The translations under genes and the position numbers were made by a program. Positions 3,149-53,596 of a stretch of DNA of 64,000 bases are shown in pieces (the first letter of the stretch is position 1; every line of letters begins with the position of its first letter). Source of the stretch: Escherichia coli (GTDB taxonomy: Bacteria > Pseudomonadota > Gammaproteobacteria > Enterobacterales > Enterobacteriaceae); NCBI RefSeq assembly GCF_044324875.1, contig NZ_CP172185.1; one strand, written 5' to 3'. The notes under the pieces are model-generated. The model was not told the origin of the DNA and searched no databases. It saw nothing but the letters and a program-made list of their open reading frames with translations.

Positions 3149-4444
<1,296 letters not shown>

Positions 4445-4544: not shown

Positions 4545-6479
4545 TTAAGACGATTTACGTACGCGCAAATACCATTCGCACAGTAAACGCACCTGTTTAC
4601 GGGTGTAGCCTTTTTCCATCATACGGTCGACAAAATCGTCGTGTTTCTTCTGCTCGTCGGTTGACGTTTTGGCGTTAAACGAAATAACCGGCAACAGCTC
4701 CTCGGTATTGGAGAACATTTTCTTCTCAATAACCGTGCGCAGTTTTTCATAGCTGGTCCAGTTAGGATTGCGTCCGCTGTTATTCGCTCTGGCGCGCAGT
4801 ACGAAGTTAACAATCTCGTTGCGGAAATCTTTTGGATTACTGATCCCCGCCGGTTTCTCGATTTTCTCCAGCTCGGCGTTAAGAGACTCGCGGTCAAACA
4901 ACTGCCCGGTATCCGGATCGCGATACTCCTGATCCTGAATCCAGAAATCCGCGTAGGTAACATAACGGTCGAAAATGTTTTGCCCATATTCGGAATAGGA
5001 TTCAAGGTAGGCCGTCTGGATCTCTTTGCCGATAAACTCGGCATATTTCGGGATCAGATAACCTTTCAGGAACTCCAGATAGCGTTCTGCCTGCTCTTGC
5101 GGGAACTGCTCGCGCTCGATCTGCTGTTCCAGGACGTAGAACAGATGGACCGGGTTTGCCGCCACTTCTACATGATCGAAGTTGAACACGCGGGAGAGGA
5201 TCTTAAACGCAAAACGCGTCGACAGACCGTTCATCCCTTCATCGACACCGGCGTAGTCACGATATTCCTGATACGACTTGGCTTTGGGATCTGTGTCTTT
5301 CAGACTTTCGCCATCATAAACCCGCATCTTTGAATAAATGCTGGAGTTTTCTGGCTCTTTAAGGCGCGAAAGAATGGAAAAACGTGACAGCGTTTCCAGC
5401 GTGCCAGGGGCGCAGGGGGCGTGAGTCAATTCACTGTGATTAAGCAATTTCTCGTAGATTTTGATCTCTTCGGAAATGCGCAAGCAATACGGCACCTTCA
5501 CGATGTATACACGATCGAGGAAGGCTTCGTTGTTTTTGTTATTACGGAAAGTGACCCATTCGGATTCGTTCGAGTGGGCGAGAATAATCCCGTTGAACGG
5601 CAGGGCGGAGATACCTTCCGTCCCGTTGTAGTTACCTTCCTGAGTGGCGGTTAGCAAGGGATGCAGCACTTTAATCGGTGCTTTAAACATCTCAACGAAT
5701 TCCATGATCCCCTGATTGGCGCGGCACAGCGCACCGGAATAGCCGTAGGCGTCCGGGTCATTCTGCGCGTAGTGTTCGAGTTTACGAATATCGACTTTCC
5801 CAACCAGCGCGGAGATGTCCTGGTTGTTCTCATCACCGGGTTCCGTTTTGGCGATAGCAATTTGTTGCAGAATTGACGGCCAGACCTTCACTACCCGGAA
5901 CTTAGTGATATCGCCACCAAATTCATGCAGGCGTTTTGCCGCCCACGGCGACATGATGGTGCCGAGATAACGGCGAGGAATGCCATACTCTTTTTCCAGA
6001 ATCTGCGCATCTTCCTGCGGATTGAAAAGACAGAACGGATGATCGTTGACCGGGCTACGCTCACCGTTGGCGCTCAATACATAAATCGGTACGAGCTGCA
6101 TTAATGATTTCAGTCGCTCAGCAAGCGATGATTTACCCCCACCCACAGGCCCCAGCAGATACAGGATTTGTTTCTTCTCTTCCAGCCCCTGAGCCGCGTG
6201 TTTCAGATAAGAGACAATCTGTTCAATCGCGTCTTCCATGCCGTAAAACTCTTCAAATGCCGGATAACGTGCAATGACCCGGTTAGAAAAGAGTCGAGAA
6301 AGTCTGGGTTCCTGGGCTGTATCGACCATGACAGGCTCACCGATAGCCATCAATAGCCGCTCAGCCGCGTTGGCATAAGCACTGCGATCTTGCCGACAAG
6401 TGGTAAGAAACTCCTGCAGTGTGAACTCTTCGTCCTTGGCAGCTTCATATCGCTGGCGATAGTGATCGAATATATTCAT
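4545..6479 (-). CDS. yeaG: PrkA-family serine protein kinase YeaG
   Basis: 644-aa ORF with Walker-A-like GPVGGGKSS motif; recognised YeaG sequence. Confidence 0.92.
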   Translation of the reverse strand: MNIFDHYRQRYEAAKDEEFTLQEFLTTCRQDRSAYANAAERLLMAIGEPVMVDTAQEPRLSRLFSNRVIARYPAFEEFYGMEDAIEQIVSYLKHAAQGLEEKKQILYLLGPVGGGKSSLAERLKSLMQLVPIYVLSANGERSPVNDHPFCLFNPQEDAQILEKEYGIPRRYLGTIMSPWAAKRLHEFGGDITKFRVVKVWPSILQQIAIAKTEPGDENNQDISALVGKVDIRKLEHYAQNDPDAYGYSGALCRANQGIMEFVEMFKAPIKVLHPLLTATQEGNYNGTEGISALPFNGIILAHSNESEWVTFRNNKNNEAFLDRVYIVKVPYCLRISEEIKIYEKLLNHSELTHAPCAPGTLETLSRFSILSRLKEPENSSIYSKMRVYDGESLKDTDPKAKSYQEYRDYAGVDEGMNGLSTRFAFKILSRVFNFDHVEVAANPVHLFYVLEQQIEREQFPQEQAERYLEFLKGYLIPKYAEFIGKEIQTAYLESYSEYGQNIFDRYVTYADFWIQDQEYRDPDTGQLFDRESLNAELEKIEKPAGISNPKDFRNEIVNFVLRARANNSGRNPNWTSYEKLRTVIEKKMFSNTEELLPVISFNAKTSTDEQKKHDDFVDRMMEKGYTRKQVRLLCEWYLRVRKSS

Positions 6480-6914
6480 GGTATGCCGTCCTTTCGTTTT
6501 TTAGCACAGGTTAAGAGCCGTTCATATGAATAGTAGAGGCTCCCGGAAGAGGTAAACTGAACGACGTCTCTTGCTAAAACACAGCAACTCTCATGCCATT
6601 TTATCGACGATGAGAACAACGTGCCCGGTGATACACCTTCAAAATTAAGCGTAGATGGCAAATGGAAAACTTGCCTGCACGGCTTTCTTAATTTCAATGG
6701 CATATCAACAACTCATCCATAAATTTTGCATAATTAATGTAAAGACCAGGGTCGCCAGTAACGCTAAATTCATTTGGCTGTAAGCGCGGTGTCATCCGCG
6801 TCAGGAAAATTAAACAGTTACTTTAAAAAATGAAAACGTAAAAAGGTTGGGTTTCGATGTATTGACGGGTAAACTTTGTCGCCCGCTAAACATTTGTTTA
6901 AGGAATGATTAATT

Positions 6915-7661
6915 GTGACCAAACTCAAACTTCTGGCACTTGGAGTGCTTATCGCAACGTCTGCAGGCGTAGCGCACGCTGAAGGTAAATTTTCCCTGGG
7001 CGCAGGCGTAGGTGTCGTTGAACACCCATATAAAGATTACGATACCGATGTTTACCCAGTACCGGTAATCAACTATGAAGGCGATAACTTCTGGTTCCGT
7101 GGCTTAGGTGGTGGTTACTACCTGTGGAATGACGCAACGGACAAACTTTCAATTACCGCTTACTGGTCGCCGCTTTACTTCAAAGCTAAAGACAGTGGCG
7201 ATCACCAAATGCGTCACCTGGATGACCGTAAGAGCACCATGATGGCTGGTCTGTCTTATGCTCACTTTACCCAGTACGGTTACCTGCGTACCACCCTGGC
7301 TGGCGATACCCTGGATAACAGCAACGGCATTGTCTGGGATATGGCCTGGTTGTATCGTTACACCAACGGCGGCCTGACCGTGACTCCGGGTATTGGTGTG
7401 CAGTGGAACAGCGAAAACCAGAACGAATACTATTATGGCGTATCGCGCAAAGAGTCCGCTCGCAGCGGTCTGCGTGGCTATAACCCGAACGACAGCTGGA
7501 GCCCTTACCTGGAGCTGAGCGCCAGCTACAACTTCCTCGGCGACTGGAGTGTTTACGGTACCGCGCGCTACACCCGTCTGTCTGATGAAGTTACTGACAG
7601 CCCGATGGTGGATAAATCCTGGACTGGCCTGATTTCTACCGGGATCACCTACAAATTCTGA
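6915..7661 (+). CDS. mipA: MltA-interacting outer membrane protein MipA
   Basis: 248-aa ORF with signal peptide (MTKLKLLALGVLIATSAGVAHA), beta-barrel-like composition and C-terminal Phe; GTG start. Confidence 0.92.
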   Translation: MTKLKLLALGVLIATSAGVAHAEGKFSLGAGVGVVEHPYKDYDTDVYPVPVINYEGDNFWFRGLGGGYYLWNDATDKLSITAYWSPLYFKAKDSGDHQMRHLDDRKSTMMAGLSYAHFTQYGYLRTTLAGDTLDNSNGIVWDMAWLYRYTNGGLTVTPGIGVQWNSENQNEYYYGVSRKESARSGLRGYNPNDSWSPYLELSASYNFLGDWSVYGTARYTRLSDEVTDSPMVDKSWTGLISTGITYKF

Positions 7662-7692
7662 TAATGCATCTTTCCAGGGCATTTTGTGCATA

Positions 7693-7718
7693 AAAACAGG
7701 GCGTCACGCCCTGTTTTG
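7693..7718 (+). terminator. Rho-independent terminator downstream of mipA
   Basis: GC stem acagggcg/cgccctgt with 3-nt loop followed by TTTTG, about 30 bp after the mipA stop. Confidence 0.5.
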
Positions 7719-7750
7719 CATTACGGTGGTGCAATACCTGGGAGGAAACA

Positions 7751-8039
7751 ATGCAACAAAAAATGATTCAATTTAGTGGCGATGTCTCACTGCCAGCCAT
7801 AGGGCAGGGAACATGGTATATGGGCGAAGATGCCAGTCAGCGCAAAACAGAAGTAGCTGCACTACGCGCGGGCATTGAACTCGGTTTAACCCTCATTGAT
7901 ACCGCCGAAATGTATGCCGATGGTGGTGCCGAAAAGGTGGTTGGGGAAGCATTAACCGGTCTGCGAGAGAAGGTCTTTCTCGTCTCTAAAGTCTATCCGT
8001 GGAATGCTGGCGGGCAAAAAGCGATAAATGCATGCGAAG
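7751..8039 (+). pseudogene. yeaE: yeaE (aldo-keto reductase) 5' fragment, interrupted by IS insertion
   Basis: N-terminal 96 codons of YeaE (MQQKMIQFSGDVSLPAIGQGTWYMG...AINACE), then the frame runs into IS sequence and stops at 8056. Confidence 0.85.
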
Positions 8040-8241
8040 TGCAAAATGGCATCTGAATCGATCGCAGTTTGGCATTCGAATCGATCATGATTTGGCATCC
8101 ATCTCCGATCACAGTTTGGCATCACAATCGATCACGATTTGGCATGCTTCCGATCATTGATTGGCATCCTGCCAGTCACTCCGGGAATTAACTCTTTTCA
8201 CCACAGTCTCCATTGCCGTGTTTAAACCAGTGGAGACGTCA

Positions 8242-9807
8242 ATGTCCAGAAAGAGAAAATCCAGGAGCACTATGGAAACCTGTTTTAAGATCCTTCAGCT
8301 CAAGTTCGACAAGAAGCTGACTAACCGTTGTATCGGACTGACGTTACACATCAGCGCCTCAACCGTTTTTGAGGTTCTTGCCCGCTTCAAAGCCTCTTCT
8401 CTGTCATGGCCATTACCTGCTGATATATCCCATGACACGCTGGAGAAACTCATTTTTCCGCCCAAAGACACCTTTGCATCAGAGCTTGTAATGCCTGACA
8501 TGTTGTACTTCGATACGGAAATGAGAAAACCAGGTGTGACGCGGCAACTGTTGTGGATGGAATACAAGGCACAGGCGGGTAACAAAGCGATGGGATACTC
8601 GCACTTCTGCCGTTGCTACCGGGAGTGGAAAAAAACGCGACGTCTCTCCATGCGCCAGGAGCATCGTGCCGGCGAAAAGCTTTTTATCGACTTCTGTGGT
8701 CCTACGGTTCCTGTTATTAATCCGGACACCGGTGAGATACGCCGCGTGGCAATCTTCGTGGCCGTAATGGGGGCGTCCAACTATACCTACGTTGAAGCGT
8801 GCGAAGGTCAGGACATGATGTCATGGTTAAATGCCCACAGCCGTTGCCTGACCTTCCTGGGCGGCGTACCGAAGCTGCTCATCCCCGATAACCTCAGAAG
8901 CGCAGTGAAAAAGGCCGATCGATATGAGCCTGTCATCAACGACAGTTATCAGGCACTGGCTGAGCACTATGGCACGGTTATCATCCCGGCCCGACCACGC
9001 AAACCTAAAGATAAACCAAAAGCAGAAAACGGCGTCCTCATCGTTGAACGATGGCTTCTTGCCCGCATCCGTAATGAAACCTTCCACACGCTCAGGGCGC
9101 TGAATGCGCGCCTTAGGGAGTTACTGACAGACATGAATAACCGGCCAATGAAGGGGTACGGCAATCAAACCCGTGCAGAACGCTTCCGCATACTGGATGC
9201 GCCAGCACTCTCTCCGCTGCCTCTGGCACCTTATGAATACACGGAATACAAAGCTGTGAAGGTTGGCCCTGACTACCACGTTGAATATGCCCGTCACTGG
9301 TACTCCGTTCCACACGAACTGGTCGGTCAGCGTCTGTCACTGAAGGCGGGGCAGTCGGTGGTACAGCTCTGGCACAAGGGGCAGTGTGTGGCGCAACATC
9401 CGCGCAGCACACATGAATATAAACACACAACCAATCCGCTTCACATGCCAGAGCGCCACCGGCAGCACGGGACATGGACACCGGAACGCCTGATCGAGCA
9501 GGGAAAACGTACGGGCCCGTCCACAGGCCGGGTGGTTGAATCCATGCTGAAGGCAAAACCCCATCCGGAACTGGCTTATCGTGCAGTTCTGGGGCTGCTG
9601 GCACTTCAGAAAAAATACGGCCCGGAACGGCTGGAAAAGGCCTGTTACGTTGCCCTGCACTATAACGCCCCTGACAGACGCTTTATCGACAATCTGCTGC
9701 GTCACCATCGGGAGAACCTGGAGCTTCCATTATCCCGCCAGGGCGAACAACATCCGGCATATGCTTCAGAGCATGAAAACCTGCGTGGTCCGGGCTACTA
9801 CCACTGA
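8242..9807 (+). CDS. istA: IS21-family transposase IstA
   Basis: About 520-aa ORF with N-terminal HTH and DDE-type catalytic core typical of IstA; RBS GGAG upstream of ATG 8242; followed by istB. Confidence 0.85.
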   Translation: MSRKRKSRSTMETCFKILQLKFDKKLTNRCIGLTLHISASTVFEVLARFKASSLSWPLPADISHDTLEKLIFPPKDTFASELVMPDMLYFDTEMRKPGVTRQLLWMEYKAQAGNKAMGYSHFCRCYREWKKTRRLSMRQEHRAGEKLFIDFCGPTVPVINPDTGEIRRVAIFVAVMGASNYTYVEACEGQDMMSWLNAHSRCLTFLGGVPKLLIPDNLRSAVKKADRYEPVINDSYQALAEHYGTVIIPARPRKPKDKPKAENGVLIVERWLLARIRNETFHTLRALNARLRELLTDMNNRPMKGYGNQTRAERFRILDAPALSPLPLAPYEYTEYKAVKVGPDYHVEYARHWYSVPHELVGQRLSLKAGQSVVQLWHKGQCVAQHPRSTHEYKHTTNPLHMPERHRQHGTWTPERLIEQGKRTGPSTGRVVESMLKAKPHPELAYRAVLGLLALQKKYGPERLEKACYVALHYNAPDRRFIDNLLRHHRENLELPLSRQGEQHPAYASEHENLRGPGYYH

Positions 9808-9824
9808 CAGAAGGAACAACAGTA

Positions 9825-10579
9825 TGAGTGATAACCTGTTAAACAAACTGACCCAACTGAAACTCCCGGCGATGGCCGGGAGCCTGATACGGCAGCGGGA
9901 AACGCCTCAGACCTACGACGAACTGTCGTTCGAGGAAAGGCTGACGCTGCTGGTTGATGACGAGCTTCTGAGCAGGGAAAACAGCCGTGTGGCACGGTTG
10001 AGAAAAAATGCCGGCCTGAAATACCAGGCAACACCGGAAGGGCTGCGCTATCCGGCCTCAAGAGGTCTGCGGGCTGAACAGATGAGAGAACTGCTGAACG
10101 GCCACTACATAACCCACAGGAAAAACCTGCTGATAACCGGTCCGACAGGATGTGGCAAGAGCTGGATAGCCAATGCGCTGGGCGAACAGGCATGTCGACA
10201 GAAACACAGCGTCCGGTACTGTAGAACCGGGCGATTACTGGAACAACTGGCTCAGGGACGTGTTGATGGCAGCTGGCTGAAATATCTGAAACAGTTGCAA
10301 AAAATACAGGTTCTAATCCTGGACGATCTGGGGCTGGAACAGTTAAGTAACGCCCAGTGTAATGACCTTCTGGAGCTCATAGAGGATCGTTACGGACAAA
10401 GCAGCACGATAGTGGTAAGCCAGTTCCCGGTAGATAAATGGCATGGTCTGATGGAGAACCCAACAACAGCAGATGCCATCCTGGACAGACTGGTACATAA
10501 CTCACACCGAGTGGTCCTTCAGGGAGAGTCACTGAGGAAAAATCCCCCGGTAGTGGAAAGCAGCGAAAAAACGCGTTAA
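9825..10579 (+). CDS. istB: IS21-family ATP-binding helper IstB
   Basis: 251 aa from MSDNLLNKLTQLKLPAMAG...; Walker A GPTGCGKSW and Walker B ILDDLG; starts 15 bp after the istA stop. Confidence 0.88.
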
Positions 10580-10678
10580 AAAGCGGTAGAAAAAGTTAAG
10601 TTCCCGGTTGATCGAATGGATGCGAATCGCTGATCGGACTTCGATGCCAATCCGTGATCGAATAGAGCGGAATACGCA

Positions 10679-11249
10679 CGAAGCCAGTTTACGCCGTCTC
10701 AATACTGATTATCTCGATCTCTACTTATTACACTGGTCTGGCAGTTTCGCTCTCGAAGAGACTGTCGCAGCGATGGAAAAATTGATCGCCCAGGGCAAAA
10801 TCCGCCGCTGGGGCGTTTCTAACCTTGATTATGCCGATATGCAGGAACTCTGGCAGCTGCCGGGGGGGAATCAGTGTGCCACTAATCAGGTGCTTTACCA
10901 TCTCGGTTCACGAGGGATTGAGTACGATCTACTTCCCTGGTGCCAGAAACAGCAGATGCCGGTGATGGCTTACAGTCCGTTAGCTCAGGCCGGGCGGTTG
11001 CGCAATGGGCTGCTAAAAAACGCAGTAGTCAACGAAATTGCACATGCTCACAATATCAGCGCGGCACAAGTATTGTTAGCGTGGGTAATCAGCCATCAGG
11101 GTGTGATGGCGATTCCAAAAGCGGCCACGATTGCCCATGTCCAACAAAATGCGGCTGTGCTTGAGGTTGAATTTTCGTCAGCGGAATTAGCTATGCTGGA
11201 TAAGGCATATCCGGCACCAAAAGGAAAAACTGCGCTGGATATGGTGTGA
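10679..11249 (+). pseudogene. yeaE: yeaE 3' fragment (aldo-keto reductase C-terminal part)
   Basis: Frame resumes exactly at the target duplication with ASLRRLNTDYLDLYLLHW... through the YeaE C-terminus. Confidence 0.85.
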
Positions 11250-11299
11250 TATTGATACGTGCCGGATGCATCGCACCCGGCACACAACATTAACGCAAA

Positions 11300-12184
11300 T
11301 TAACGTTTCGCAACGCGAATGGATTGCGCCAGATGTGCAGGTTTTTCTTTGGTCACTTTTTGCGTTTCTGAAGCGTAAGCCGTTTCTACACAAACAAAGG
11401 TTTTGTAGCCATCGTCCGGCATATCGCCCATGCTAACTGAAAGCGCCGGTCCTGGGTTCCAGCCAACGACGTTCAGATGATGCTGGTGGCCTACGGCGAT
11501 AATACGATTCAACGCTTCGTCATTAATCACGCTGCAATCTTGCGGATTCAGATACACGCGATCGGTACGGTCAGGGAAGGTCTGAATACCGTCGGTCAGT
11601 ACATCTTCTTTCGCGTCATTCACTTTATCAATGAAGCGATCGCCCAGTCCACTGACGCTTACCTTAGTGATATCACCCACGTTAAAGTAGGTATGCAGGG
11701 CAGAGGTGGTTTCAAATTCGCCGTGTGCTTCAAGATCGATTTCACAGGCTTTACCCACGCGGAAATGCGCTAATAGCGTAAAGTCGTGCGGCCAGAATTT
11801 TTTCGTCTCTTCGCTTTGTGTCAATTCAAAAGTCAGCGCTACGCCATCAGCATCTTCACGATGTGATTTCAGCGTCCACGGCAGGTTGCGGGCAAAACCG
11901 TGCGCAGGCAGACCTTGTTGTGCAGCCGGACCAAACCACGGCCAGCAAACCGGTACGCCACCGCGAATAGCGACGCCATTTTTGAACGGTGTGTTATTGC
12001 TCAACCACAGAACTTCTTCTTCACCTGCAGGTTTCCATGAGAGAAGGTGTGCGCCCTGTAATGCAAAAGAGGCTTTTACCTGGGGATGATCGACCACAAT
12101 GAGGTCCAGTTCATCCAGTTTACGACGGGAGAGGACAGGGGAGATTTGTTCGATGACCGGAAGGGCAAAAATTTTCTTAATCAT
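11300..12184 (-). CDS. yeaD: Glucose-6-phosphate 1-epimerase YeaD
   Basis: Recognised YeaD sequence (MIKKIFALPVIEQISPVLSRRKLDELDLIVVDHPQ...); the track ORF extends 7 codons upstream to 12205. Confidence 0.9.
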   Translation of the reverse strand: MIKKIFALPVIEQISPVLSRRKLDELDLIVVDHPQVKASFALQGAHLLSWKPAGEEEVLWLSNNTPFKNGVAIRGGVPVCWPWFGPAAQQGLPAHGFARNLPWTLKSHREDADGVALTFELTQSEETKKFWPHDFTLLAHFRVGKACEIDLEAHGEFETTSALHTYFNVGDITKVSVSGLGDRFIDKVNDAKEDVLTDGIQTFPDRTDRVYLNPQDCSVINDEALNRIIAVGHQHHLNVVGWNPGPALSVSMGDMPDDGYKTFVCVETAYASETQKVTKEKPAHLAQSIRVAKR

Positions 12185-12212
12185 GACGCAGTCCTTTAAC
12201 TTCATTTTATCA

Positions 12213-12249
12213 GGTAAAAAAAAGAGCGACCGAAGTCGCTCTTTTTAGA
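12213..12249 (-). terminator. Rho-independent terminator after gapA (possibly bidirectional, also after yeaD)
   Basis: Hairpin agagcgac-cgaa-gtcgctct flanked by an A-run on one side and a T-run on the other, between convergent-like gapA and yeaD ends. Confidence 0.55.
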
Positions 12250-12267
12250 TCACAGTGTCATCTCAAC

Positions 12268-13275
<1,008 letters not shown>

Positions 13276-13306
13276 CTATTTGTTAGTGAATAAAAGGTTG
13301 CCTGTA

Positions 13307-13334
13307 AAATTACAAAAACCTTACGCAGCGTCAA
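13307..13334 (-). promoter_or_regulatory. Candidate sigma70 promoter for gapA
   Basis: On the minus strand TTGACG (-35), 16-bp spacer, TAATTT (-10), about 45-70 bp upstream of the gapA start. Confidence 0.35.
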
Positions 13335-13604
13335 GCGGAATCGTGTCAATCATTGCGACAAATCAATCCTGTGCCTAAGCATTACGCGACTGACTCGCCT
13401 CACTCTTCCTTTGGGCTTGAGACCACATGGGGTCGGCGTCCCGAATTTTAAAGGGCAATTACGATAAAAATGTGACTTTCATCACGATTTAGGTGCAGCC
13501 ATTTCGTCGAGATCAAGTTTAGGACAAAATTTTGCCAGTTGGTGTTAATGTTTTGTTAGAATCAGTCACGTAATGTGAGCACGATTAAAGTGAGATGTGA
13601 GCAA

Positions 13605-45662: not shown

Positions 45663-46340
45663 CTATTTTCCGATAAATTCAACGCTGGCGCCGGTGGCAT
45701 TACCGTCAGCACCAACCGTGACGGTCACTTTGTCGTACGCACGGTCTTCAGGATTGAACACTTCAAACTCAACCTTATTGCCTTTTACTTCGTAAGAGCC
45801 AAAATCAGCGGTTTCTGTTATTTCCTCGTCATATTCCCGGGCGTATGCCTGCCGGGCAGCCTGCAGGACGGAATCTTTATTAATAGTGGTCGTCTGTTTC
45901 GGGGAAAAACCGGCAAGTGATGTGACAAATTTCGGACAGACCTTCAGCATATCACCGCGGGTGAATTCCATTCGTACACCAAATGCCTGTAAAACGGACA
46001 CATCACGCTCTGCTATGGAGTGAACGGCTTTTTTGACCATTTCCGGCGCCTGTCCGACTTCCACCTCAACAGCCCTGAATCCTGTCTGCTGATTACACAT
46101 TTGTGATGTGGGGATCAGGTTACCGTTAATACTGATACGGTTGCCCAGGAGCGTCTGTACGCCATTCGGGCATCCCTGCATCAGGCCGGTAATACCAATC
46201 GTGCCATTTTTCAGCATTACCAGCGCCTGACCATCTTCCGTCATGGTCTGACACCAGCCGTTTTTGACAGCCCAGTTGCCGGCGGAGGCGGAGAATGATG
46301 CCACAGTGAACAGCAGGGGAAAAAGAATTCTGGTATTCAT
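45663..46340 (-). CDS. Secreted/periplasmic hypothetical protein (225 aa) with signal peptide
   Basis: N-terminus [23 protein letters not shown] (signal peptide with AxA-type cleavage site); RBS GAGG; occupies the cargo slot between the GTPase and DUF932 genes. Confidence 0.6.
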
Positions 46341-46458
46341 GACTGACCTCTGAAATTAAAGAGCGTGTTATTGATAATGACAGACGGTATACGGCAGTGG
46401 TTACCGTAATCCGTTGTCGTGTAAAGGTATACGGTTGCCACGGGGGACTCCGGAGCGT

Positions 46459-47343
46459 TCAGAACAGGTGATCCCACAGAGTGACCAGCAGGTGGATAAT
46501 GCGGTCCCGGGTTTTGCGCAGAAGCTGTAACATCCAGGCCGGAAAACTGAAACGGGCAACGGCGTCGTCAAAACTTTTCCCGATGGTTTCACCAAAAGTC
46601 TGTTGTGCGTGTTTCTGGACCCGTTCAGAGCGGTTTTCCCCCCGGATATGTGAATAAACCGCGCTGGTTGCCTGTGGCGGCAGTGCGTGGATCATCAGTG
46701 ACACCAGTGCCGGAATATTCCAGCCGACAGGCGCGGCAACGGGGAGTACCGGAAATGATGAAGGGAACAGGGTTGCCACCCGGGCTGTCACCGTCGCCAG
46801 CGAGAGTTCCTGGTGACGGGACGGGCATTTTTCTGTGTCGTTCCATTCTTCAGCAGGAAATACGCGATCGGCATGGCTGAGAACAAACAGAAAACGCGAG
46901 GGATCTGCACCTTCATTCAGTAAAAACTGATGCATGGCGATGTCGGCAGCATACGCACGTTCATCAGCCCGCAGGATCCAGATAATCAGATCCAGTTCGG
47001 GCAGTAACTGACTGTAAAGTGCCCGGTATTCCTGATCATGCTGTGGTGTTTCGCCAGTGCCGGGCAGATCGACCAGCGTCATTCTTCGTTCACCGGGCTG
47101 AAAGGTAAGACGATGAGCCTGACGGGTGCAGCCGTTCAGCGGATGCGTGGCGCAGACACGGGACTGAAAAATGGCATTGCACAGGCTGCTTTTTCCGGCA
47201 CCGGATTTACCCATAATGCCAATCACGGGCTCGTAATGAATAACACTGTGGAGATGTTCAAGGATTTTCTGGCGAATTTCTTCAGGAAGAAACGTCAGAT
47301 ATGATTTCACTTGTGCGGAGAGGGAAGAATGGCTGAATGACAT
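46459..47343 (-). CDS. YeeP/YfjP/YkfA-family GTPase
   Basis: 294-aa ORF with P-loop GIMGKSGAGKSS and G3 motif DLPGTG; typical lead gene of CP4-type island cassettes. Confidence 0.85.
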   Translation of the reverse strand: MSFSHSSLSAQVKSYLTFLPEEIRQKILEHLHSVIHYEPVIGIMGKSGAGKSSLCNAIFQSRVCATHPLNGCTRQAHRLTFQPGERRMTLVDLPGTGETPQHDQEYRALYSQLLPELDLIIWILRADERAYAADIAMHQFLLNEGADPSRFLFVLSHADRVFPAEEWNDTEKCPSRHQELSLATVTARVATLFPSSFPVLPVAAPVGWNIPALVSLMIHALPPQATSAVYSHIRGENRSERVQKHAQQTFGETIGKSFDDAVARFSFPAWMLQLLRKTRDRIIHLLVTLWDHLF

Positions 47344-47448
47344 ACCGGTATCCTGTTGATTTCACTGAACCGGATCACACTAATCCGGTTTATCATTCAG
47401 GTAATATGGGCGTGAAAAAATCTGGAGTGACAAAGTTCGGGAGGAGTG

Positions 47449-48399
47449 ATGGCATCACTGTCGATTAATACGCTACGCCGAATGAGCATTTGTAAAAGTC
47501 AGGCCTGGAAAGATACCCAGCGAATACTGAAGCGTAGTGGACTTGTGTACAGAGGGGAACGGTCAGAATCGTTTGATCCTGAGAAACATTTTAATCGTTA
47601 TACGGTGCGTTATCTGTACCTGCTTAACATAATTGCGCTTAAGATAAGGTCGGTTAGTAAATTTTCCTGTTGGATCGAGGTGGGACAATGCCATCGTATG
47701 ACTGGTAAACATTTATCTCTTAATGCCCCGCCTTTTATGCTGATTCCGCGTAGTATCCGGAGAAAAGTGGATGGATTCAGACAGTCAAAAGGTGAAGCAA
47801 CCCCAAAATCGGCTCAACCGTTCACGGGCAGTTTGTATGAGGTTTTGAGAAAGGAGAGCGATTCAGCTAAGCTGGACGCATGGATTGCTGAACTGCCTCT
47901 GAACTTGCAGGAGGAGGGAAAGGAAATCTCAGTCATGGGATTTAGTCCACGGGCTGTGGCCCGACCTGTTCTTCGGTCAGCATCCCCGACGTTTGAACTG
48001 TTTTATCAGGAGTATCAATCCCTAAGATTAAAATCTGTTTTTAAATTTGAACCAAGATTTGAACAACTTTTAACAAGACTGAGCTTTAGAAAACAATCAA
48101 TTCTCAGAAAACAACAATACAGGGTTAAATCGCAATTACTGGAGAGACTGGGGAATGTGTTGTTTTTCACGTCGCTTTATAACCAGGGATGTTTAGAGGA
48201 GTTTATAAATGCACTTGTGGAAAAGGAGGACATTTATCTGAAAATGTCCCCTGGGGAGGAAAAGGTGAAAGCACACCAGAAAATGGTTAACTACATTGAA
48301 GCGTTCTGCAACAAAATGACGGAAAAATACCTGATGCCCGCAGCAAGCAGACACTACAAAAAGAAGAAAATCGCCAGGAGCGAAAGTGGTGAAAGTTAA
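47449..48399 (+). CDS. Hypothetical protein (316 aa), low GC, unrecognised family
   Basis: Strong RBS GGGAGGAG 4 nt before ATG 47449; divergent from the GTPase gene; basic and coiled-coil-rich; no motif I can assign. Confidence 0.55.
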   Translation: MASLSINTLRRMSICKSQAWKDTQRILKRSGLVYRGERSESFDPEKHFNRYTVRYLYLLNIIALKIRSVSKFSCWIEVGQCHRMTGKHLSLNAPPFMLIPRSIRRKVDGFRQSKGEATPKSAQPFTGSLYEVLRKESDSAKLDAWIAELPLNLQEEGKEISVMGFSPRAVARPVLRSASPTFELFYQEYQSLRLKSVFKFEPRFEQLLTRLSFRKQSILRKQQYRVKSQLLERLGNVLFFTSLYNQGCLEEFINALVEKEDIYLKMSPGEEKVKAHQKMVNYIEAFCNKMTEKYLMPAASRHYKKKKIARSESGES

Positions 48400-49184
48400 T
48401 CCAGTCTACCGTACAGAATCAGTTGTTCCAGAATAGCCTGCTGTGTTGTTTTCCGCTCTCTGGTCAGTCTGTCCAGAGCGCTTTTTGCGGATGGCGATAT
48501 CTTTACGTTGATTTGTACCCGTTTATCTTTTTTTCCATCGATAAACTGTTTTCTGAATGCATTGTGCATCTTGTCGAAAAATCTTTCTTTTGCAGCGAAT
48601 CCTAGGTGAAATTCTTTTGGCGTCAGTAAACAGGGTGTGTCTGTGGGGAATAACATTTTTAGTAAAACTACAATGGCAATATATCTTTCGTTATCATTTA
48701 CAGGATTAAACCAGGAAAGATATGTGGGTGAGATACGTGCATCAATATATTCCCATGCCCATTTCAGTTGTTCGGTATTCTTTTTAAGCCATTTGGCTTC
48801 GTTTCTCTTTTCGAGTCCCAGCCAGTTTTGATGCATTATTGAGATAATCCGATCTGCTTCCCCATAAAGGATTAACGCATTAATCCATTTCCCTATAACA
48901 TTCAGTCGTGTTTCATGACTTGAAGGAATAATTGTCATGGGGTTATCCTTCATAACGATCACCCCCTTCAAGGCAGAGTTGAACTCAGATTCATTATTAA
49001 GTTTAAGTTTTTCGGGAACTGTATGAGACATAATTAACCAGAACCAGAATGCTGCAATTTCATTTTTTCTGATCCATTCAGGTATGTGATTATCTGCCAG
49101 ATTATTATCATTCAATAAATGCTCAGTTGTTTTATTTTTCCAGTCATATCTATTCACGTTATAACCGCCTTTATATTGTTTCAT
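48396..49184 (-). CDS. Hypothetical protein (about 262 aa), low GC, C-terminal ribbon-helix-helix-like segment
   Basis: ATG 49184 with RBS GAGG 8 nt upstream (the track ORF starts 29 codons earlier); stop overlaps the convergent gene stop by 4 nt; C-terminus KISPSAKSALDRLTRERKTTQQAILEQLI resembles RHH DNA-binding folds. Confidence 0.5.
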   Translation of the reverse strand: MKQYKGGYNVNRYDWKNKTTEHLLNDNNLADNHIPEWIRKNEIAAFWFWLIMSHTVPEKLKLNNESEFNSALKGVIVMKDNPMTIIPSSHETRLNVIGKWINALILYGEADRIISIMHQNWLGLEKRNEAKWLKKNTEQLKWAWEYIDARISPTYLSWFNPVNDNERYIAIVVLLKMLFPTDTPCLLTPKEFHLGFAAKERFFDKMHNAFRKQFIDGKKDKRVQINVKISPSAKSALDRLTRERKTTQQAILEQLILYGRLD

Positions 49185-49804
49185 CTGATTACGCCTCAAT
49201 CGTTTTCTTTTCTGGTGATTTTCACCATCACATGTCAGTTGTATATGCAAGGGGATCAATAAAAATATCACCCTGCAAGCACTTCAAAGCTGATTATGGG
49301 GATATTCTAGAACTATTCACAAAACTATTCCAGACATATCAAGAACTATTTCTTGACCTATTCATAATAAAATAAAACATGCTATCAACTACGGCTCATA
49401 TTCTCCTTGGGGGTGTCGTTGTACTGTTCGACTGTTCTTGTGGTCAGATTAACAATCTGAAGAGTAAAAGCGACAGTAATCTGTCTGTTATAGTGGCGAT
49501 AAAAACACTGAATGCGCATCCTGTATGTGAAATCCTGTCATGTAGAGCAGTAAGCAATGACAGACATGCATGTTATATGTGAAGGGGGCCGGGAGACGAC
49601 ATAATCAGTATGGCTGTCATTCTGGTTGTAAAACGCGATCACTTTCCGGGGGTAAAAGATGATATGGAGGTTGACAAACGGTTTGCTTCGGATTGTCTTT
49701 TCTGGGGCCTGAAATACGAGGGCAGAAAAATAATTCCAGAGTAAATCTGCTCTGTTTTTAGGACAGAAAACTCCATGCTGGCTGTAAAAGTGAAAAATTA
49801 ACAC

Positions 49805-50881
49805 CCAGTATGTATGGAAGTCTGAAGATGTTGAGAATGTCGGTATGATACTATATACACATATTTTACTAAGTATTTTTACTAAGCATTTCAGTAAGTG
49901 TTATACACGTATTTTCTACTAAGTGTTTTACCAGACATACACGTGTTTTCATAAACAGCCCTATAAGTGTTTTCATTAAGCATTGCTGTACACATTGCTT
50001 TGTCTGAAACACATCCAGTTTAGTAAATCTTTACGTTAGCTAAAATCAGTTTAAAGCTGCTGTAAAACCTTTCTGTTTAAGCAATCAATCTGCTATTCGA
50101 TTTTACTGATGTTGCGTTTAACCTTTTCTGAGATTTCGAGTTTCGACGTTAGCATGAGAAAAGTATCTTTACGCTAAATCAACCCGAACTTTCCTGAAGT
50201 AATCTGACGTTTTTTTCGATGTGCTTACGACGATTCTGTTAAACGACTTTCTGGATGTTTTGATAACAATCAGATTGAGGCATTAACGATTCCTGACGTT
50301 TTCTTTTCCGTGTAAGGTCATTCTTTTTGTCATGAGGTTTCTTCTTGCATTGCGAAAGTGTGATGAACGGTTTTGGTGTTTTTGATTCAGATAAGGTTTA
50401 CGTTATCGATGGTTAATCGTTTTTATGGTGCGTAGTGAAACGTAACTTTTTCAGGATGAGAAAATCGATTCTGATGTTGGTGATTTTTGTTCTTGTGGCG
50501 GGGTTTATCTGTAAACAGGTTTTAAACGTGTCATTCACATCCGTGATTGAGTTGTGTGATTAAGCTGTAGGTTTTGGGGTTGTTGTTGATTTGCATTACC
50601 AGGAAGCGTTCTGGTTGCGTTTCTGGTGTTTTGTTCGAATGTTCTGTGGATCCTTTTCCCTTCTGACTTTTCTCGTTGTCCATGTCGTTTTTAAATCCAT
50701 TCGCTGTTCTTGAGTGTTTTTACCCTGCGTGTAGAATTATCTTTTCGTTCCGGGATGGTTTGTTCCGTTTCAATCACTCTTAATCAGAGAGTTGTAGCAT
50801 TGCTCAATGCCGGATGCCGTAAAGTTTTACCGCGGTGATTAATGATGTGAAGTCAATCCAAATCAACGGAGATCTCTCATC
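49805..50881. other. ORF-free, T-rich (plus strand) 1.08-kb non-coding region with repeated short motifs, upstream of the first gpII-like gene
   Basis: No ORF of 60 aa or more in any frame; strong T over A and G over C skew on the plus strand; repeated TAAGTGTTTT-like and TTTTCG/GTTT units. Confidence 0.5.
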
Positions 50882-51613
50882 ATGAATCAACCAATACATA
50901 ATGCTTACTGGTTATCCCGTTTTGACAGCCTTCTCGACAGTGCCCTGGCGCAGCACCGTGCCGTCTCGTTAATCCGGGTGGATTTACGTTTCCCTGAGTA
51001 TATGCCTGTCACCATCATGGATCCCGATCCGGATTCAGCGGTGATTTCTCGTTTTTTTGCATCCCTGAAAGCCAAAATTCAGGCTTACCAGCGGAAAAAA
51101 AGATGTGCCAATCAGCGTGTGCATGCAACCAGCCTGCGTTATTTCTGGTGCCGGGAGTTCGGCAAGGAAAAAGGCAGGAAACATTATCACGTGATATTAC
51201 TGCTCAACAAAGATACCTGGTGCTCGCCAGGGGATTTCACCGTTCCTTCTTCGCTGGCGACACTGATCAAGCTGGCATGGTGTAGCGCTCTGCATCTTGA
51301 GCCCTGGCAGGGTAATGGACTGGTTCATTTTTCCAGGCGGACGCCTTTCCGTAAACCGGCATCATCTGATGCTCGCCCTTCTTCCGATGATACGCCTTTG
51401 TCGGGTGGATGTTCTGATACCAGGAAGGCTTCAGAAAAAAAGCCGGGTGAAGCCGCTGTTCTCTGGATCAAGCGTGGTGATGTGGAAGCGCTGCAGAAAG
51501 CCCGGAACAGAGCCAGTTATCTCGTGAAATATGAGACGAAGCAGCATGACGGTTCCGGGCAACGTAATTATGGTTGCAGTCGTGGGCCGGGGCGTCTGCT
51601 GGATGGCAGGTGA
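50882..51613 (+). CDS. Inovirus gpII-like (YagK/YfjJ-family) protein, putative HUH-type replication initiator
   Basis: 243-aa ORF with HYHVILLL (His-hydrophobic-His) motif; family typical of P4/CP4-like islands. Confidence 0.65.
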   Translation: MNQPIHNAYWLSRFDSLLDSALAQHRAVSLIRVDLRFPEYMPVTIMDPDPDSAVISRFFASLKAKIQAYQRKKRCANQRVHATSLRYFWCREFGKEKGRKHYHVILLLNKDTWCSPGDFTVPSSLATLIKLAWCSALHLEPWQGNGLVHFSRRTPFRKPASSDARPSSDDTPLSGGCSDTRKASEKKPGEAAVLWIKRGDVEALQKARNRASYLVKYETKQHDGSGQRNYGCSRGPGRLLDGR

Positions 51614-51939
51614 GCCCTGTAAAACGACATCCGGTGCCTGAGCTTATGCTACAGGACGTTGGCTGACGCCCTTAGCTCGTTTTCTGAAAAAGTCGTCCTG
51701 AAGTCATGCAACGGTATTTTTCTCTGCTTTCGCTCCTGGAAACACTCCGTCGGTAAAACCTTACTGTCCTGCTTAATGATGTGAACCGAAGTCAACGGAG
51801 ATCATTCATTCTGAACCTGCATCCGGTGTTCTGTCCCTTGTCGGTTACCTGATCTTCCCGTTCTGCCGCGGTTTTTCACTTATTCCATCAACCCCATACG
51901 CAAGCCATAACACGTCAGCGCATCCACGGGCAGGACGCG

Positions 51940-52542
51940 TTGTGGGCTGCGTATAACGGAACATATCTTATGAATGCTATCCCTTATTTCGACTATAGCA
52001 TGGCGCCCTTCTGGCCATCTTATCAGAACAAAATCATCGGCGTTCTCAACCGTGTGTTGCGCGAGCAGTCCTGCTCCCGAATACGGCGGATCCTGCTTCG
52101 TCTGCCGGGGGAACATGGCAACATCTTCAGCGACAGAAAAACCTGGTTCGGTATGGCCTTTATCGAAACCGTCAGTGCGCTGATGAATGCAACCCCCGGA
52201 CGCGACCTCTGCTGGCTCCTGACCCGTCATCCTGAAAAACCGGAATACCACGTGGTGCTGTGCGTCAGACAGGAATATTTCGACGGCCCTGAGCTGGACC
52301 GGTTGATTCTGGATGCCTGGAGCAACGTACTGGGCTTCGCGTCACCGGGTGAAGCAGCACCGTACCAGAAACAGATAACCCGGGATGTGGTGCTGGACAG
52401 TTGTTCACCGGACTGCGAAGAGAGACTCAAAGAGCTGATATGGGCGTTCAGTGATTTCGCCCGCGATCGTCGTGGTGTGCGCGATCCGGAAGCCCGTTAC
52501 CTCGCCGGTAATCCCTGGTATCCCGTAGCAGGCCAGCTCTGA
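51940..52542 (+). CDS. Inovirus gpII-like (YagK/YfjJ-family) paralog
   Basis: 200-aa ORF with EYHVVLCV motif and a similar upstream sequence motif to the 50882 gene. Confidence 0.6.
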   Translation: MWAAYNGTYLMNAIPYFDYSMAPFWPSYQNKIIGVLNRVLREQSCSRIRRILLRLPGEHGNIFSDRKTWFGMAFIETVSALMNATPGRDLCWLLTRHPEKPEYHVVLCVRQEYFDGPELDRLILDAWSNVLGFASPGEAAPYQKQITRDVVLDSCSPDCEERLKELIWAFSDFARDRRGVRDPEARYLAGNPWYPVAGQL

Positions 52543-52610
52543 AAGCTCAGCTCAGCAGATTCACCCGCATTTGCCCAACATTCATAAATCTCACAGAGGA
52601 CATTCTGACC

Positions 52611-52847
52611 ATGTTGACCTCAATGACAGGTCACGACAGCGTATTGCTGCGTGCCGACGATCCCCTGATCGACATGAACTACATCACCAGCTTCACTGGT
52701 ATGACCGACAAATGGTTTTACAAGCTGATCAGTGAAGGCCATTTCCCTAAACCCATCAAACTGGGGCGCAGCAGCCGCTGGTACAAAAGTGAAGTGGAGC
52801 AGTGGATGCAGCAACGAATCGAGGCATCACGAGGGGCAGCAGCATGA
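52611..52847 (+). CDS. alpA: AlpA-family prophage transcriptional regulator (P4-type)
   Basis: 78-aa ORF with MerR-like HTH (ITSFTGMTDKWFYKLISEGHFPKPIKLGRSSRWYKSEVEQWM). Confidence 0.8.
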   Translation: MLTSMTGHDSVLLRADDPLIDMNYITSFTGMTDKWFYKLISEGHFPKPIKLGRSSRWYKSEVEQWMQQRIEASRGAAA

Positions 52848-53596
52848 AACGTGTTGTAATGCCGGTACGCTGGCAATGTGCAAAATACCAGCGTTGGTAT
52901 TGTGGAAATCAGCCCTGTCCCTGGTGCTGGCGACCTGCTGCCCCCGTCTGTCATTCCTCGTTCTTCGCTGTAACAGGCATCGTACCGGTCTCGGCGTGCT
53001 TTCCTGCGTACCGACACCGGTTCAGCAACATTCAAGGGGATCAAATCGTGCAAATAACCGAAACCGTACTTTCAGAGCCGGTGGAAATCCGGCGTTTTAT
53101 TCAGCAGGCGGTGGATCACTGGCCGCGTCTGCTGGCCGTCCACTTCACACTCCATTCGGCAGAAGGAAACATCAACGGACAACAGATTCATGCATTCTGT
53201 ACTTCCTTTTACCGACAGGTGCACGAGCGTATTACTGAACGTAATCACACGGCCAGTCCAGCACCACCGGTGGTATTACGCTGGTTGCGGGAACAACATG
53301 GAGGAGCAACAATGCGATGCCTGTTGCTGCTCAGCCAGACGAGCATTTGCCATCCACGGGTCAGTGCCACGGTTGATGAAGAATGTTCGCAACGGGTGGA
53401 TTTATTGCAACAGACATGGCGGGTGATAAGTGCTGACGGACAATGCCGGGTGGAAAGGTGTTTTCAGGCTGCCCGGGGTGATACATCCGGCCAGTATATT
53501 GCGTTAAAAACAGTTGCATTGTCTCTGGGGTTACCGGTTGTGACCGGTATTACCCATCGCCCGGTACAGCGCTGTACATTGATTACAGCTCAGTGA
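52844..53596 (+). CDS. Hypothetical protein (250 aa), translationally coupled to alpA; possibly a third gpII-like paralog
   Basis: ATGA overlap with the alpA stop; contains AVHFTLHS in a context resembling the other two paralogs; Cys/Trp-rich N-terminus. Confidence 0.45.
   Translation: MKRVVMPVRWQCAKYQRWYCGNQPCPWCWRPAAPVCHSSFFAVTGIVPVSACFPAYRHRFSNIQGDQIVQITETVLSEPVEIRRFIQQAVDHWPRLLAVHFTLHSAEGNINGQQIHAFCTSFYRQVHERITERNHTASPAPPVVLRWLREQHGGATMRCLLLLSQTSICHPRVSATVDEECSQRVDLLQQTWRVISADGQCRVERCFQAARGDTSGQYIALKTVALSLGLPVVTGITHRPVQRCTLITAQ

Follow-up and report, generated by a model that had tools for sequence, protein, structure and literature searches.

The convergent gene pair and its neighbours

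We analysed two convergent genes, orfA and orfB, at positions 47449 to 49184 of a 64,000-nucleotide stretch of Escherichia coli DNA (RefSeq assembly GCF_044324875.1, contig NZ_CP172185.1), which is called the window throughout. The first gene, orfA (47449..48399, plus strand), encodes a protein of 316 amino acids (aa) with an isoelectric point (pI) of 9.9. The second, orfB (48396..49184, minus strand), encodes a Trp-rich protein of 262 aa with a pI of 9.5. The open frame of orfA extends from 47446/47449 to 48399, with the ATG at 47449 giving the 316-aa product. That of orfB (48396-49271, minus strand) reaches up to a GTG at 49271, and the ATG at 49184 gives the 262-aa product. The RefSeq coding sequence (CDS) annotation coincides exactly with both open reading frames (ORFs), and both products are recorded as “hypothetical protein” (WP_000157733.1 for OrfA and WP_000816188.1 for OrfB).

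The two stop codons share a TTAA palindrome (48396..48399), read as TAA on each strand, and the same overlap of 4 nucleotides (nt) is found in the related loci L002, L006, L009, L021, L024, L025 and L026. Each start is preceded by a Shine-Dalgarno-like sequence, GGGAGGAGTGATG for orfA and TGAGGCGTAATCAGATG for orfB. The GC content is 43.0% in orfA, 37.4% in orfB and 38.2% in the 1.7-kb spacer beyond orfB, against 53.4% in the flanking GTPase gene, 57.3% in the DUF932 gene and 51.9% in the gpII gene. On the orfA side there is a YfjP/YeeP-type GTPase gene, then DUF932, an antirestriction gene, RadC, DUF987 and CbeA/CbtA. On the orfB side there are the gpII gene (“inovirus Gp2 family”; REP_ORF2-G2P, rolling-circle initiator-like) and a gene for an AlpA-like helix-turn-helix (HTH) protein. 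A preliminary description of this DNA had already placed a tail-to-tail pair of 316 and about 262 aa between a GTPase module and a gpII/AlpA module, with stops overlapping by 4 nt, good ribosome-binding sites and a composition more AT-rich than its flanks. The coordinates, the base composition and the RefSeq neighbours agree with that picture.

Both orfA and orfB are real genes under purifying selection and not chance ORFs. Between alleles, the ratio of nonsynonymous to synonymous substitution rates (dN/dS) is 0.41-0.54 for orfA and 0.29-0.50 for orfB, with 0.16-0.27 for the GTPase and gpII genes. The exact OrfA sequence and the exact OrfB sequence are each present on at least about 1000 contigs. 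An exhaustive profile search recovered about 15 full-length OrfA relatives at 23-30% identity. The genera named in the clusters of relatives are Citrobacter, Hafnia, Serratia, Lelliottia and Enterobacter; a further relative, from Salmonella, came from the Foldseek search. A conservation check, which the preliminary description had proposed, is thereby settled in favour of the genes, with dN/dS of 0.29-0.54 and full-length relatives down to 23% identity. A separate scan of species-representative genomes found 1 locus, the single peptide pattern used for it being too narrow.

Family searches and domain organisation

Neither OrfA nor OrfB gave a significant family in PADLOC, NCBIfam, PHROGs, Pfam or the PDB sequence profiles; the preliminary description, too, had recognised no family. 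No model of PADLOC-DB v2 matches either protein at E <= 1. When ten relatives, five of each protein, were compared with PADLOC, a single match at chance level was obtained, JetA on one OrfA relative (E 0.011, 12.7 bits). The same ten relatives gave nothing significant in NCBIfam and PHROGs, nor did Pfam on all members of the OrfA and OrfB alignments and on a 407-aa protein from strain CE10 described below. Searches of PDB profiles with five alignment profiles were likewise without significant result; the lone low E-value, to a de novo TIM barrel, was discarded as a repeat artefact with no scoring stretch. Neither the alignment nor pattern checks of OrfA and OrfB revealed a conserved catalytic motif, whether of a nuclease, an NTPase or another enzyme. 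Accessions, names of CP4-57 genes and the gene families of the island led to no study of OrfA or OrfB in the literature searched.

OrfA divides into two parts. Its N-terminal domain (about residues 1-145; 47449..47883, plus strand) is the conserved part in the alignment, with the family motifs S-x-AW-x-x-TQ-x-x-LKRSG, IVP-x-x-IRRK-x-D-x-F-x-Q and GSLY. It is followed by a C-terminal helical half with a basic tail (47884..48396, plus strand), which covaries as one block with the adjacent end of OrfB. A structural model built from a 20-sequence alignment has a mean predicted local distance difference test score (pLDDT) of 83.6 and a predicted template modelling score (pTM) of 0.82, and consists of an N-terminal alpha/beta domain and then a helical domain. 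A Foldseek search of this model against AFDB50, another check suggested earlier, matched its own uncharacterised family alone. On this model, OrfA is a basic protein of orphan predicted fold.

OrfB has a helical, hypervariable and allele-specific N-terminal domain (residues 1-205; 48570..49184, minus strand), in which seven Trp residues are invariant (W37, W47, W100, W121, W132, W142 and W144). Its C-terminal segment (residues 206-262; 48399..48569, minus strand) is probably a ribbon-helix-helix (RHH) DNA-binding domain. The segment reads as RVQINVKIS, a helix, TTQQ and a second helix, and the order RVQINVKIS-PSAKSALDRLTRE-RKTTQQAILEQLIL (also set out as RVQINVKIS / PSAKSALDRLTRE / TTQQAILEQLIL) fits a strand-helix-helix pattern in which polar residues alternate along the strand and T or S caps the N-terminus of helix B. 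All matches of OrfB fall on residues 215-257 and all are below threshold: RHH_1 with E 0.14, RepB-RCR_reg with E 0.32, NCBIfam RepA/CopB (PRK13702) with E 0.027 and 14.5 bits against a cutoff of 87, and the PDB RHH protein AvtR with E 0.23. RHH_1 is matched at E <= 0.1 in 3 of 9 OrfB family members, the RHH segments of relatives have weak PHROG matches to Arc-like and HicB-like families, and more distant OrfB homologues carry precomputed PF10723. In the AlphaFold2 monomer model of OrfB, helices at 231-244 and 248-257 follow an unstructured stretch at 219-226 (pLDDT < 50). The preliminary description had proposed an RHH-like end for this protein; the proposal stands as far as the weak matches on 215-257 support it, none of them being significant.

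Repeats upstream of orfB and the gene junction

The preliminary description had also noted direct repeats upstream of the minus-strand gene. These are four tandem repeats of the GAATAGTT type (49311..49363, minus strand), with start-to-start distances of 12, 21 and 12 nt, and they form the proposed OrfB operator. The four copies, each with at most 1 mismatch, occupy 53 nt, and there are 51 such matches across both strands of the 64-kb window. The sole two exact copies of GAATAGTT in the window lie within this array. A sigma-70-like promoter candidate of orfB (49293..49322, minus strand; TTGTGA, 18 nt, CATAAT) was identified by consensus match only; it is the single promoter-like site of that strand, and its -35 hexamer falls inside the array. 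The array resembles the operator of an autoregulated RHH protein, and we propose that OrfB may bind it.

Arrays of GAATAGTT with 11-12-nt spacing are also found upstream of orfB in L021 (four copies), L016 and L006. A compact locus of Citrobacter type, L009, has a direct pair of the motif with overlapping inverted copies between orfB and alpA. In the E. coli loci, the repeats are embedded in DNA with only 30-50% identity to the window. The repeat becomes GAATATTT/AAATATTT in L002 and, in less complete form, L024, where the RHH strand reads RVQISALIS, so that the shift of the repeat motif parallels the shift of the strand from INVKIS to ISALIS.

At the orfA/orfB junction, no terminator was found, and the junction RNA folded no better than shuffles (z = +1.2). 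Since the genes converge on a junction without a terminator, transcripts of either gene should run on into the other in antisense. The only terminator-like hairpins, two with T-runs (48334..48383, minus strand; 48383-48371 and 48354-48334), lie inside the last orfA codons and are pattern matches only.

Distribution in islands

The convergent pair adjoins the GTPase gene, in the same orientation, in 12/12 loci long enough to be informative, at protein identities down to 23-30%. Four shorter contigs hold the pair alone or have a cut gene at the GTPase position. This answers the question of neighbourhood conservation that the preliminary description had raised.

In a set of 5426 complete E. coli genomes, the N-terminal half of orfA occurs at 813 places in 741 genomes (about 14%). 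The orfB RHH is found at 605 places as type 1 and at 196 places as type 2; because their sum of 801 is close to the 813 places of orfA, the two genes come together. A GTPase of this type is present at 2502 places, and about one third of such islands hold the orfA/orfB pair (813/2502). Strain CFT073 and ST131 strains are among the carriers. Of 72,556 plasmid records, 2 to 4 contained either gene; the 50,697 phage records contained neither.

The pair behaves as a long-standing, position-fixed module of the island family and not as cargo picked up once. We considered the class of variable cargo and rejected it on account of the fixed position and orientation and the near-absence from plasmids and phages, although only about one third of the GTPase islands hold the pair. 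In K-12 CP4-57 (L019 6352-12356), the slot between the gpII-like yfjJ and the GTPase gene yfjP is occupied by abpB, abpA, yfjM, rnlA and rnlB, which include known anti-phage and toxin-antitoxin genes. The presence of abpAB and rnlAB there means that the position can carry defence cargo. The “variable cargo slot” of the preliminary description is thus an apt term for the slot, which can hold defence genes, but not for the pair, which is fixed in its position. The OrfA and OrfB profiles find no relative in K-12 CP4-57, and kinship with YfjH, YfjL/AbpA and YfjM of that island was rejected, no profile matching.

In the pairless islands that we sampled, from CE10 and O157 86-24, an orfA-like gene stands in the same spot. 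The orfA position is taken there by hypothetical proteins of 407 aa (L017 7295-8518, E. coli CE10) and 376 aa (L018 7379-8509, O157:H7 86-24). Both proteins match the OrfA N-terminal domain (hhalign 94.6%, hmmsearch E 1e-7 to 5e-12), their C-terminal part differs from that of OrfA, and the orfB partner is absent. Judged from these matches, the OrfA N-terminal domain appears to be a fixed feature of the islands, even without orfB.

The one informative plasmid, pNDM5_LS003 (L027, NZ_OP290546.1; IncI, conjugative, NDM-5), carries at 6408-13417 a block running from orfA and orfB through the spacer and gpII to a gene of the YfjI family. This island fragment adjoins repA, comes without the GTPase module and encodes proteins identical to their counterparts in strain NC22.

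Allelic mosaic

The divergence between islands is distributed unevenly along the locus. In L002, L006 and L016, the identity to the window is 90-93% for the GTPase, 90% for DUF932, 89-92% for gpII and 96-97% for RadC, and falls to 56-75% for OrfA and 28-49% for OrfB. Among E. coli alleles, the N-terminal domain of OrfA is 67-81% identical, and its C-terminal half goes down to 40%. This half is 79-81% identical to the window in L021, L016 and L006 and 40-42% in L002 and L024. The OrfB RHH follows it closely, at 81-95% in the former three loci and 40% in the latter two. The block formed by the OrfB N-terminal domain and the upstream region behaves otherwise, the domain having identities to the window of 68, 37, 32, 24 and 22%. 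In alleles where this domain is just 32-37% identical, the RHH is still 91-95% identical.

Three blocks vary separately: the OrfA N-terminal domain; the OrfA C-terminal half together with the OrfB RHH; and the OrfB N-terminal domain together with its upstream region. Across the OrfB N-terminal region the DNA identity is 30-60%, with sharp edges near 48554 and 49425. We also considered whether the C-terminal half of OrfA and the N-terminal domain of OrfB covary strictly, as they would in a cognate toxin-immunity pair. This was rejected, as the former is 79-81% identical while the latter is 32-37%.

The synonymous divergence (dS) between orfB alleles is 1.4-2.8, which is saturated, against 0.16-0.25 for the backbone GTPase and gpII genes. 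Between the window and L006, the proportion of synonymous differences (pS) in the OrfB N-terminal domain is 0.63-0.89. The proportion of nonsynonymous differences (pN) equals or exceeds pS between the two closest alleles only in OrfB residues 51-100, a low-confidence loop. This contrast in dS indicates old alleles and not recent fast evolution: the locus consists of old allelic lineages recombined into a young backbone. The low GC content, which the preliminary description had taken to suggest a separate acquisition, goes with old alleles in a young backbone and not with a single recent gain, and we do not retain that suggestion as it was put.

Further features of the region

A conserved TTGATAGCATGTTTTA element (49373..49388, minus strand) lies just upstream of the repeats in the window, L021, L016 and L006. 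Variants of it containing GCATGT are found in L015, L012 and L009, amid otherwise unalignable DNA. The plus-strand ORF at 49379-49582 was examined as a possible conserved gene and rejected: by hand translation, its first three residues alone are common with L006, so the conservation is that of element DNA and not of a protein.

The GTPase and orfA genes are divergent, and the region between them (47344..47448) contains an inverted repeat and an invariant GGTAATATGGGCGTGAAAAA. The inverted repeat is 16 nt long, with arms at 47333-47348 and 47385-47400 and three CCGG motifs. The invariant GGTAATATGGGCGTGAAAAA (47400-47419) is likely to be the -10 region of orfA. Islands that have an orfA-like gene of either type retain these intergenic elements, and L009, of Citrobacter type, retains part of them. 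The GTPase gene of the window (46459-47343) is intact and encodes 294 aa. Its copy in strain 135 (L001 11161-12044) is frameshifted and several further backbone genes of that strain are pseudogenes; orfA and orfB are intact there.

The spacer between orfB and gpII (49185-50881) is 1.7 kb long, AT-rich and gene-poor, and occurs at 3249 places in 1876 of the 5426 complete E. coli genomes. The part on the right (about 49720-50880) accompanies gpII, and the spacer is commoner than orfA/orfB. It includes a 13-nt tandem array, TTTTACTAAGTAT x5, at 49864-49929, and may be an origin or a transfer site. A spacer ORF at 50531-50683 (minus strand, 50 aa) is annotated as a hypothetical protein in some RefSeq genomes (WP_012139175.1 in L001) and is unannotated in others. 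A search of 46000-53000 with Rfam gave PhotoRC-I at 51305-51372 (plus strand), inside gpII, with 24.3 bits against a gathering threshold of 45; it was rejected as a likely chance match.

Proposed function and alternatives

Our preferred reading, quite possible though short of probable, is that orfA and orfB form an obligate, island-intrinsic sensor/repressor module, that is a regulatory module, of the CP4-57/SRL-type integrative islands of Enterobacterales. Islands of this family have the GTPase, DUF932, antirestriction, RadC and CbeA/CbtA genes on one side of the pair and a gpII-like Rep with AlpA on the other. For the module we infer an RHH fold and repeat binding by OrfB, repression, sensing by its N-terminal domain, a role of OrfA alongside it and antisense coupling of the two genes, as follows. 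Through its C-terminal RHH, OrfB would form dimers that attach to the tandem GAATAGTT repeats, which are spaced by one helical turn and overlap the -35 hexamer, and would thus regulate its own gene. In compact islands the repeats lie in the divergent region between orfB and alpA/gpII, and OrfB would probably hold the excision and rolling-circle module off. The Trp-rich N-terminal domain of 200 residues would be the input domain, for sensing or oligomerisation, whose old alleles are swapped by recombination. OrfA may be a nucleic-acid-binding partner or an antagonist of OrfB, and antisense read-through of the convergent genes could make their expression mutually antagonistic. In favour of this reading are the constant position and orientation of the pair, the nearly equal counts of orfA and orfB, their restriction to one island family, the operator-like repeats, the old alleles with a well-conserved RHH end in a young backbone, and the lack of enzyme motifs in two basic proteins. 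The RHH draws on five independent weak profile matches to one stretch of 40 residues; repressors of plasmid replication are the families nearest to this tail, and the next gene is the rolling-circle-initiator-like gpII.

Several observations weigh against a regulatory module. Every RHH match is below significance (best E 0.027 in NCBIfam and 0.14 in Pfam), and the RHH strand region has a pLDDT < 50 in the monomer model. The orfB promoter is a weak consensus match, in a region that holds fewer such matches than shuffles. L012, L013 and L015 have no clear repeat array, and in the window the repeats are 1.5 kb from gpII, so control of gpII and alpA is argued from the compact relatives alone. The OrfB N-terminal domain varies independently of OrfA, which gives no support for a specific OrfA-OrfB contact through that domain. 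Finally, a defence or exclusion system would account just as well for old alleles that recombine and vary in their “sensor”, and K-12 has abpAB and rnlAB in the same slot.

An alternative is a new two-gene conflict system, serving defence against phages or plasmids, abortive infection or a toxin-antitoxin-like function, which we consider unlikely but worth serious attention. OrfB would sense an invader through its variable N-terminal domain and autoregulate through its RHH, as RHH antitoxins such as HicB do, and OrfA would serve as effector against nucleic acid or another essential target. The abpAB and rnlAB genes of the K-12 slot are in line with such a role, as is a restriction endonuclease just past gpII in the O157 island. 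So are the old, recombining, divergent alleles, with pN >= pS in OrfB 51-100 between the two closest of them, the obligate co-occurrence of orfA and orfB, the low GC, the lack of a known fold match for either protein and the weak HicB-like and Arc-like matches on the RHH of relatives. However, PADLOC gave nothing beyond the chance-level JetA match (E 0.011), no conserved catalytic or NTPase motif was seen in the alignment and pattern checks, and the genes are convergent and not co-transcribed. Defence genes carried as cargo commonly pass between phages, plasmids and islands, whereas this pair is confined to the island backbone and nearly absent from plasmids and phages, and the OrfA N-terminal domain is fixed in islands even without orfB. 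A role in DNA processing, which is quite improbable in our judgement, would make OrfB an RHH accessory factor of a relaxosome or replisome (TraY, NikA, CopG-like) that bends the DNA at an origin within the AT-rich spacer, where the gpII-like initiator would act, with OrfA as a DNA-binding cofactor. RHH accessory proteins are the usual partners of rolling-circle initiators and relaxases, and here the nearest profiles are RepB-RCR_reg and RepA/CopB and the next gene is gpII / REP_ORF2-G2P. The joint move of the orfA-orfB-spacer-gpII block to an IncI plasmid, the conserved, gene-poor spacer with its 13-nt tandem array and the basic character of both proteins agree with this. Yet gpII and the right part of the spacer are found at 3249 places, and orfB at about 800, so gpII does not need OrfB. 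A hypervariable domain of 200 residues is also unexpected in an accessory factor of a conserved origin, and no nick site or origin was identified. Very improbable, lastly, is that the genes are decaying or selfish remnants without present function, their conservation being due to the recent spread of a few island clones. There are truncated or frameshifted copies (P0041, P0075 and P0111), pseudogenes are frequent among the adjacent island genes, and many copies are at least 99% identical. Set against these are the dN/dS of 0.29-0.54 across alleles with saturated dS, the intact full-length pairs across Enterobacterales down to 23% identity with their motifs conserved, and the retention of both the 4-nt stop overlap and the upstream repeats.

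The regulatory reading can be taken one step further, to a version that we regard as rather improbable. In it, the OrfB alleles would be helper-sensing master repressors of a large, unrecognised family of inducible mobile islands in Enterobacterales. Each old N-terminal allele would recognise a different phage or plasmid protein, which would lift the RHH from its sites and release excision and rolling-circle replication by AlpA and gpII, and OrfA would be a built-in antagonist of new fold. If this were true, many “cryptic” ends of pathogenicity islands in uropathogenic E. coli (UPEC), ST131 and enterohaemorrhagic E. coli (EHEC) would be live, signal-responsive elements.

The pair is frequent in pathogenic E. 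coli, belongs to a conserved end-module of pathogenicity islands and is entered as “hypothetical” or “no similarity” throughout the records and papers that we examined. It offers clear experimental handles: a probable regulator with a candidate operator, an exchangeable domain of 200 residues, and a partner without structural neighbour outside its own family. Should OrfB prove to be a regulator, this island family would gain its first described one, with a bearing on the mobility and stability of virulence islands. If the pair is a conflict system, it would be a new one with a new effector fold. What is new here is a putative RHH-based regulatory module of a mobile element, made of two novel domains and an orphan-fold partner.

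Comparison with known systems

The closest resemblance of OrfB, in its last ~45 residues, is to the CopG, RepB-RCR_reg and CopB (RepA2) repressors, which are its best matches, although sub-threshold. The predicted order of strand, helix and helix is alike, and there are short repeats at OrfB's own promoter and a rolling-circle-initiator-like gene nearby. However, those repressors have 45-86 aa and are co-transcribed with rep, whereas OrfB has 262 aa with an unrelated N-terminal domain of 200 residues. Unlike a copy-control repressor gene, orfB also converges on an unrelated gene and lies on the opposite strand to gpII, 1.7 kb away. We therefore rejected the class of copy-control repressors for OrfB, which shows neither the small size nor the rep operon structure that define it.

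RHH antitoxins of type II toxin-antitoxin (TA) systems, such as HicB, have a C-terminal RHH after a larger N-terminal domain and a constant partner gene, as OrfB probably has, and the island is rich in TA genes (CbtA/CbeA). Unlike in type II TA systems, orfA is convergent and forms no operon with orfB, and its 316-aa product has no toxin family match. With convergent genes and no TA family matched in PADLOC, NCBIfam or Pfam, the type II TA class was rejected. The AbpAB and RnlAB systems of CP4-57 occupy the same slot as orfA/orfB and have no homology to them; they have a helicase or an RNase, and OrfA and OrfB show neither.

A corresponding arrangement is found in the SRL island of Shigella flexneri, where four ORFs reported with “no similarity”, orf42-orf45, are flanked by Vis/AlpA (orf41) and the YfjP/YeeP GTPase (orf46) (PMC6980539). 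This is the same slot in an island of the same family, and by position, not by sequence, orf44 and orf45 would correspond to orfB and orfA.

In terms of function, the Stl repressors of Staphylococcus aureus pathogenicity islands (SaPIs) and the immunity regions of phages offer the nearest parallel. Stl is an HTH protein with no sequence or fold relation to OrfB. Repressors of the Stl class are de-repressed by a helper-encoded protein, whereas OrfB is not known to have a helper or inducer. The parallel is a functional analogy only. It lies in a conserved, putatively DNA-binding end joined to a divergent, allele-specific other domain, in old alleles shuffled by recombination and, in the compact relatives, in the divergent orientation of orfB from the AlpA and replication genes.

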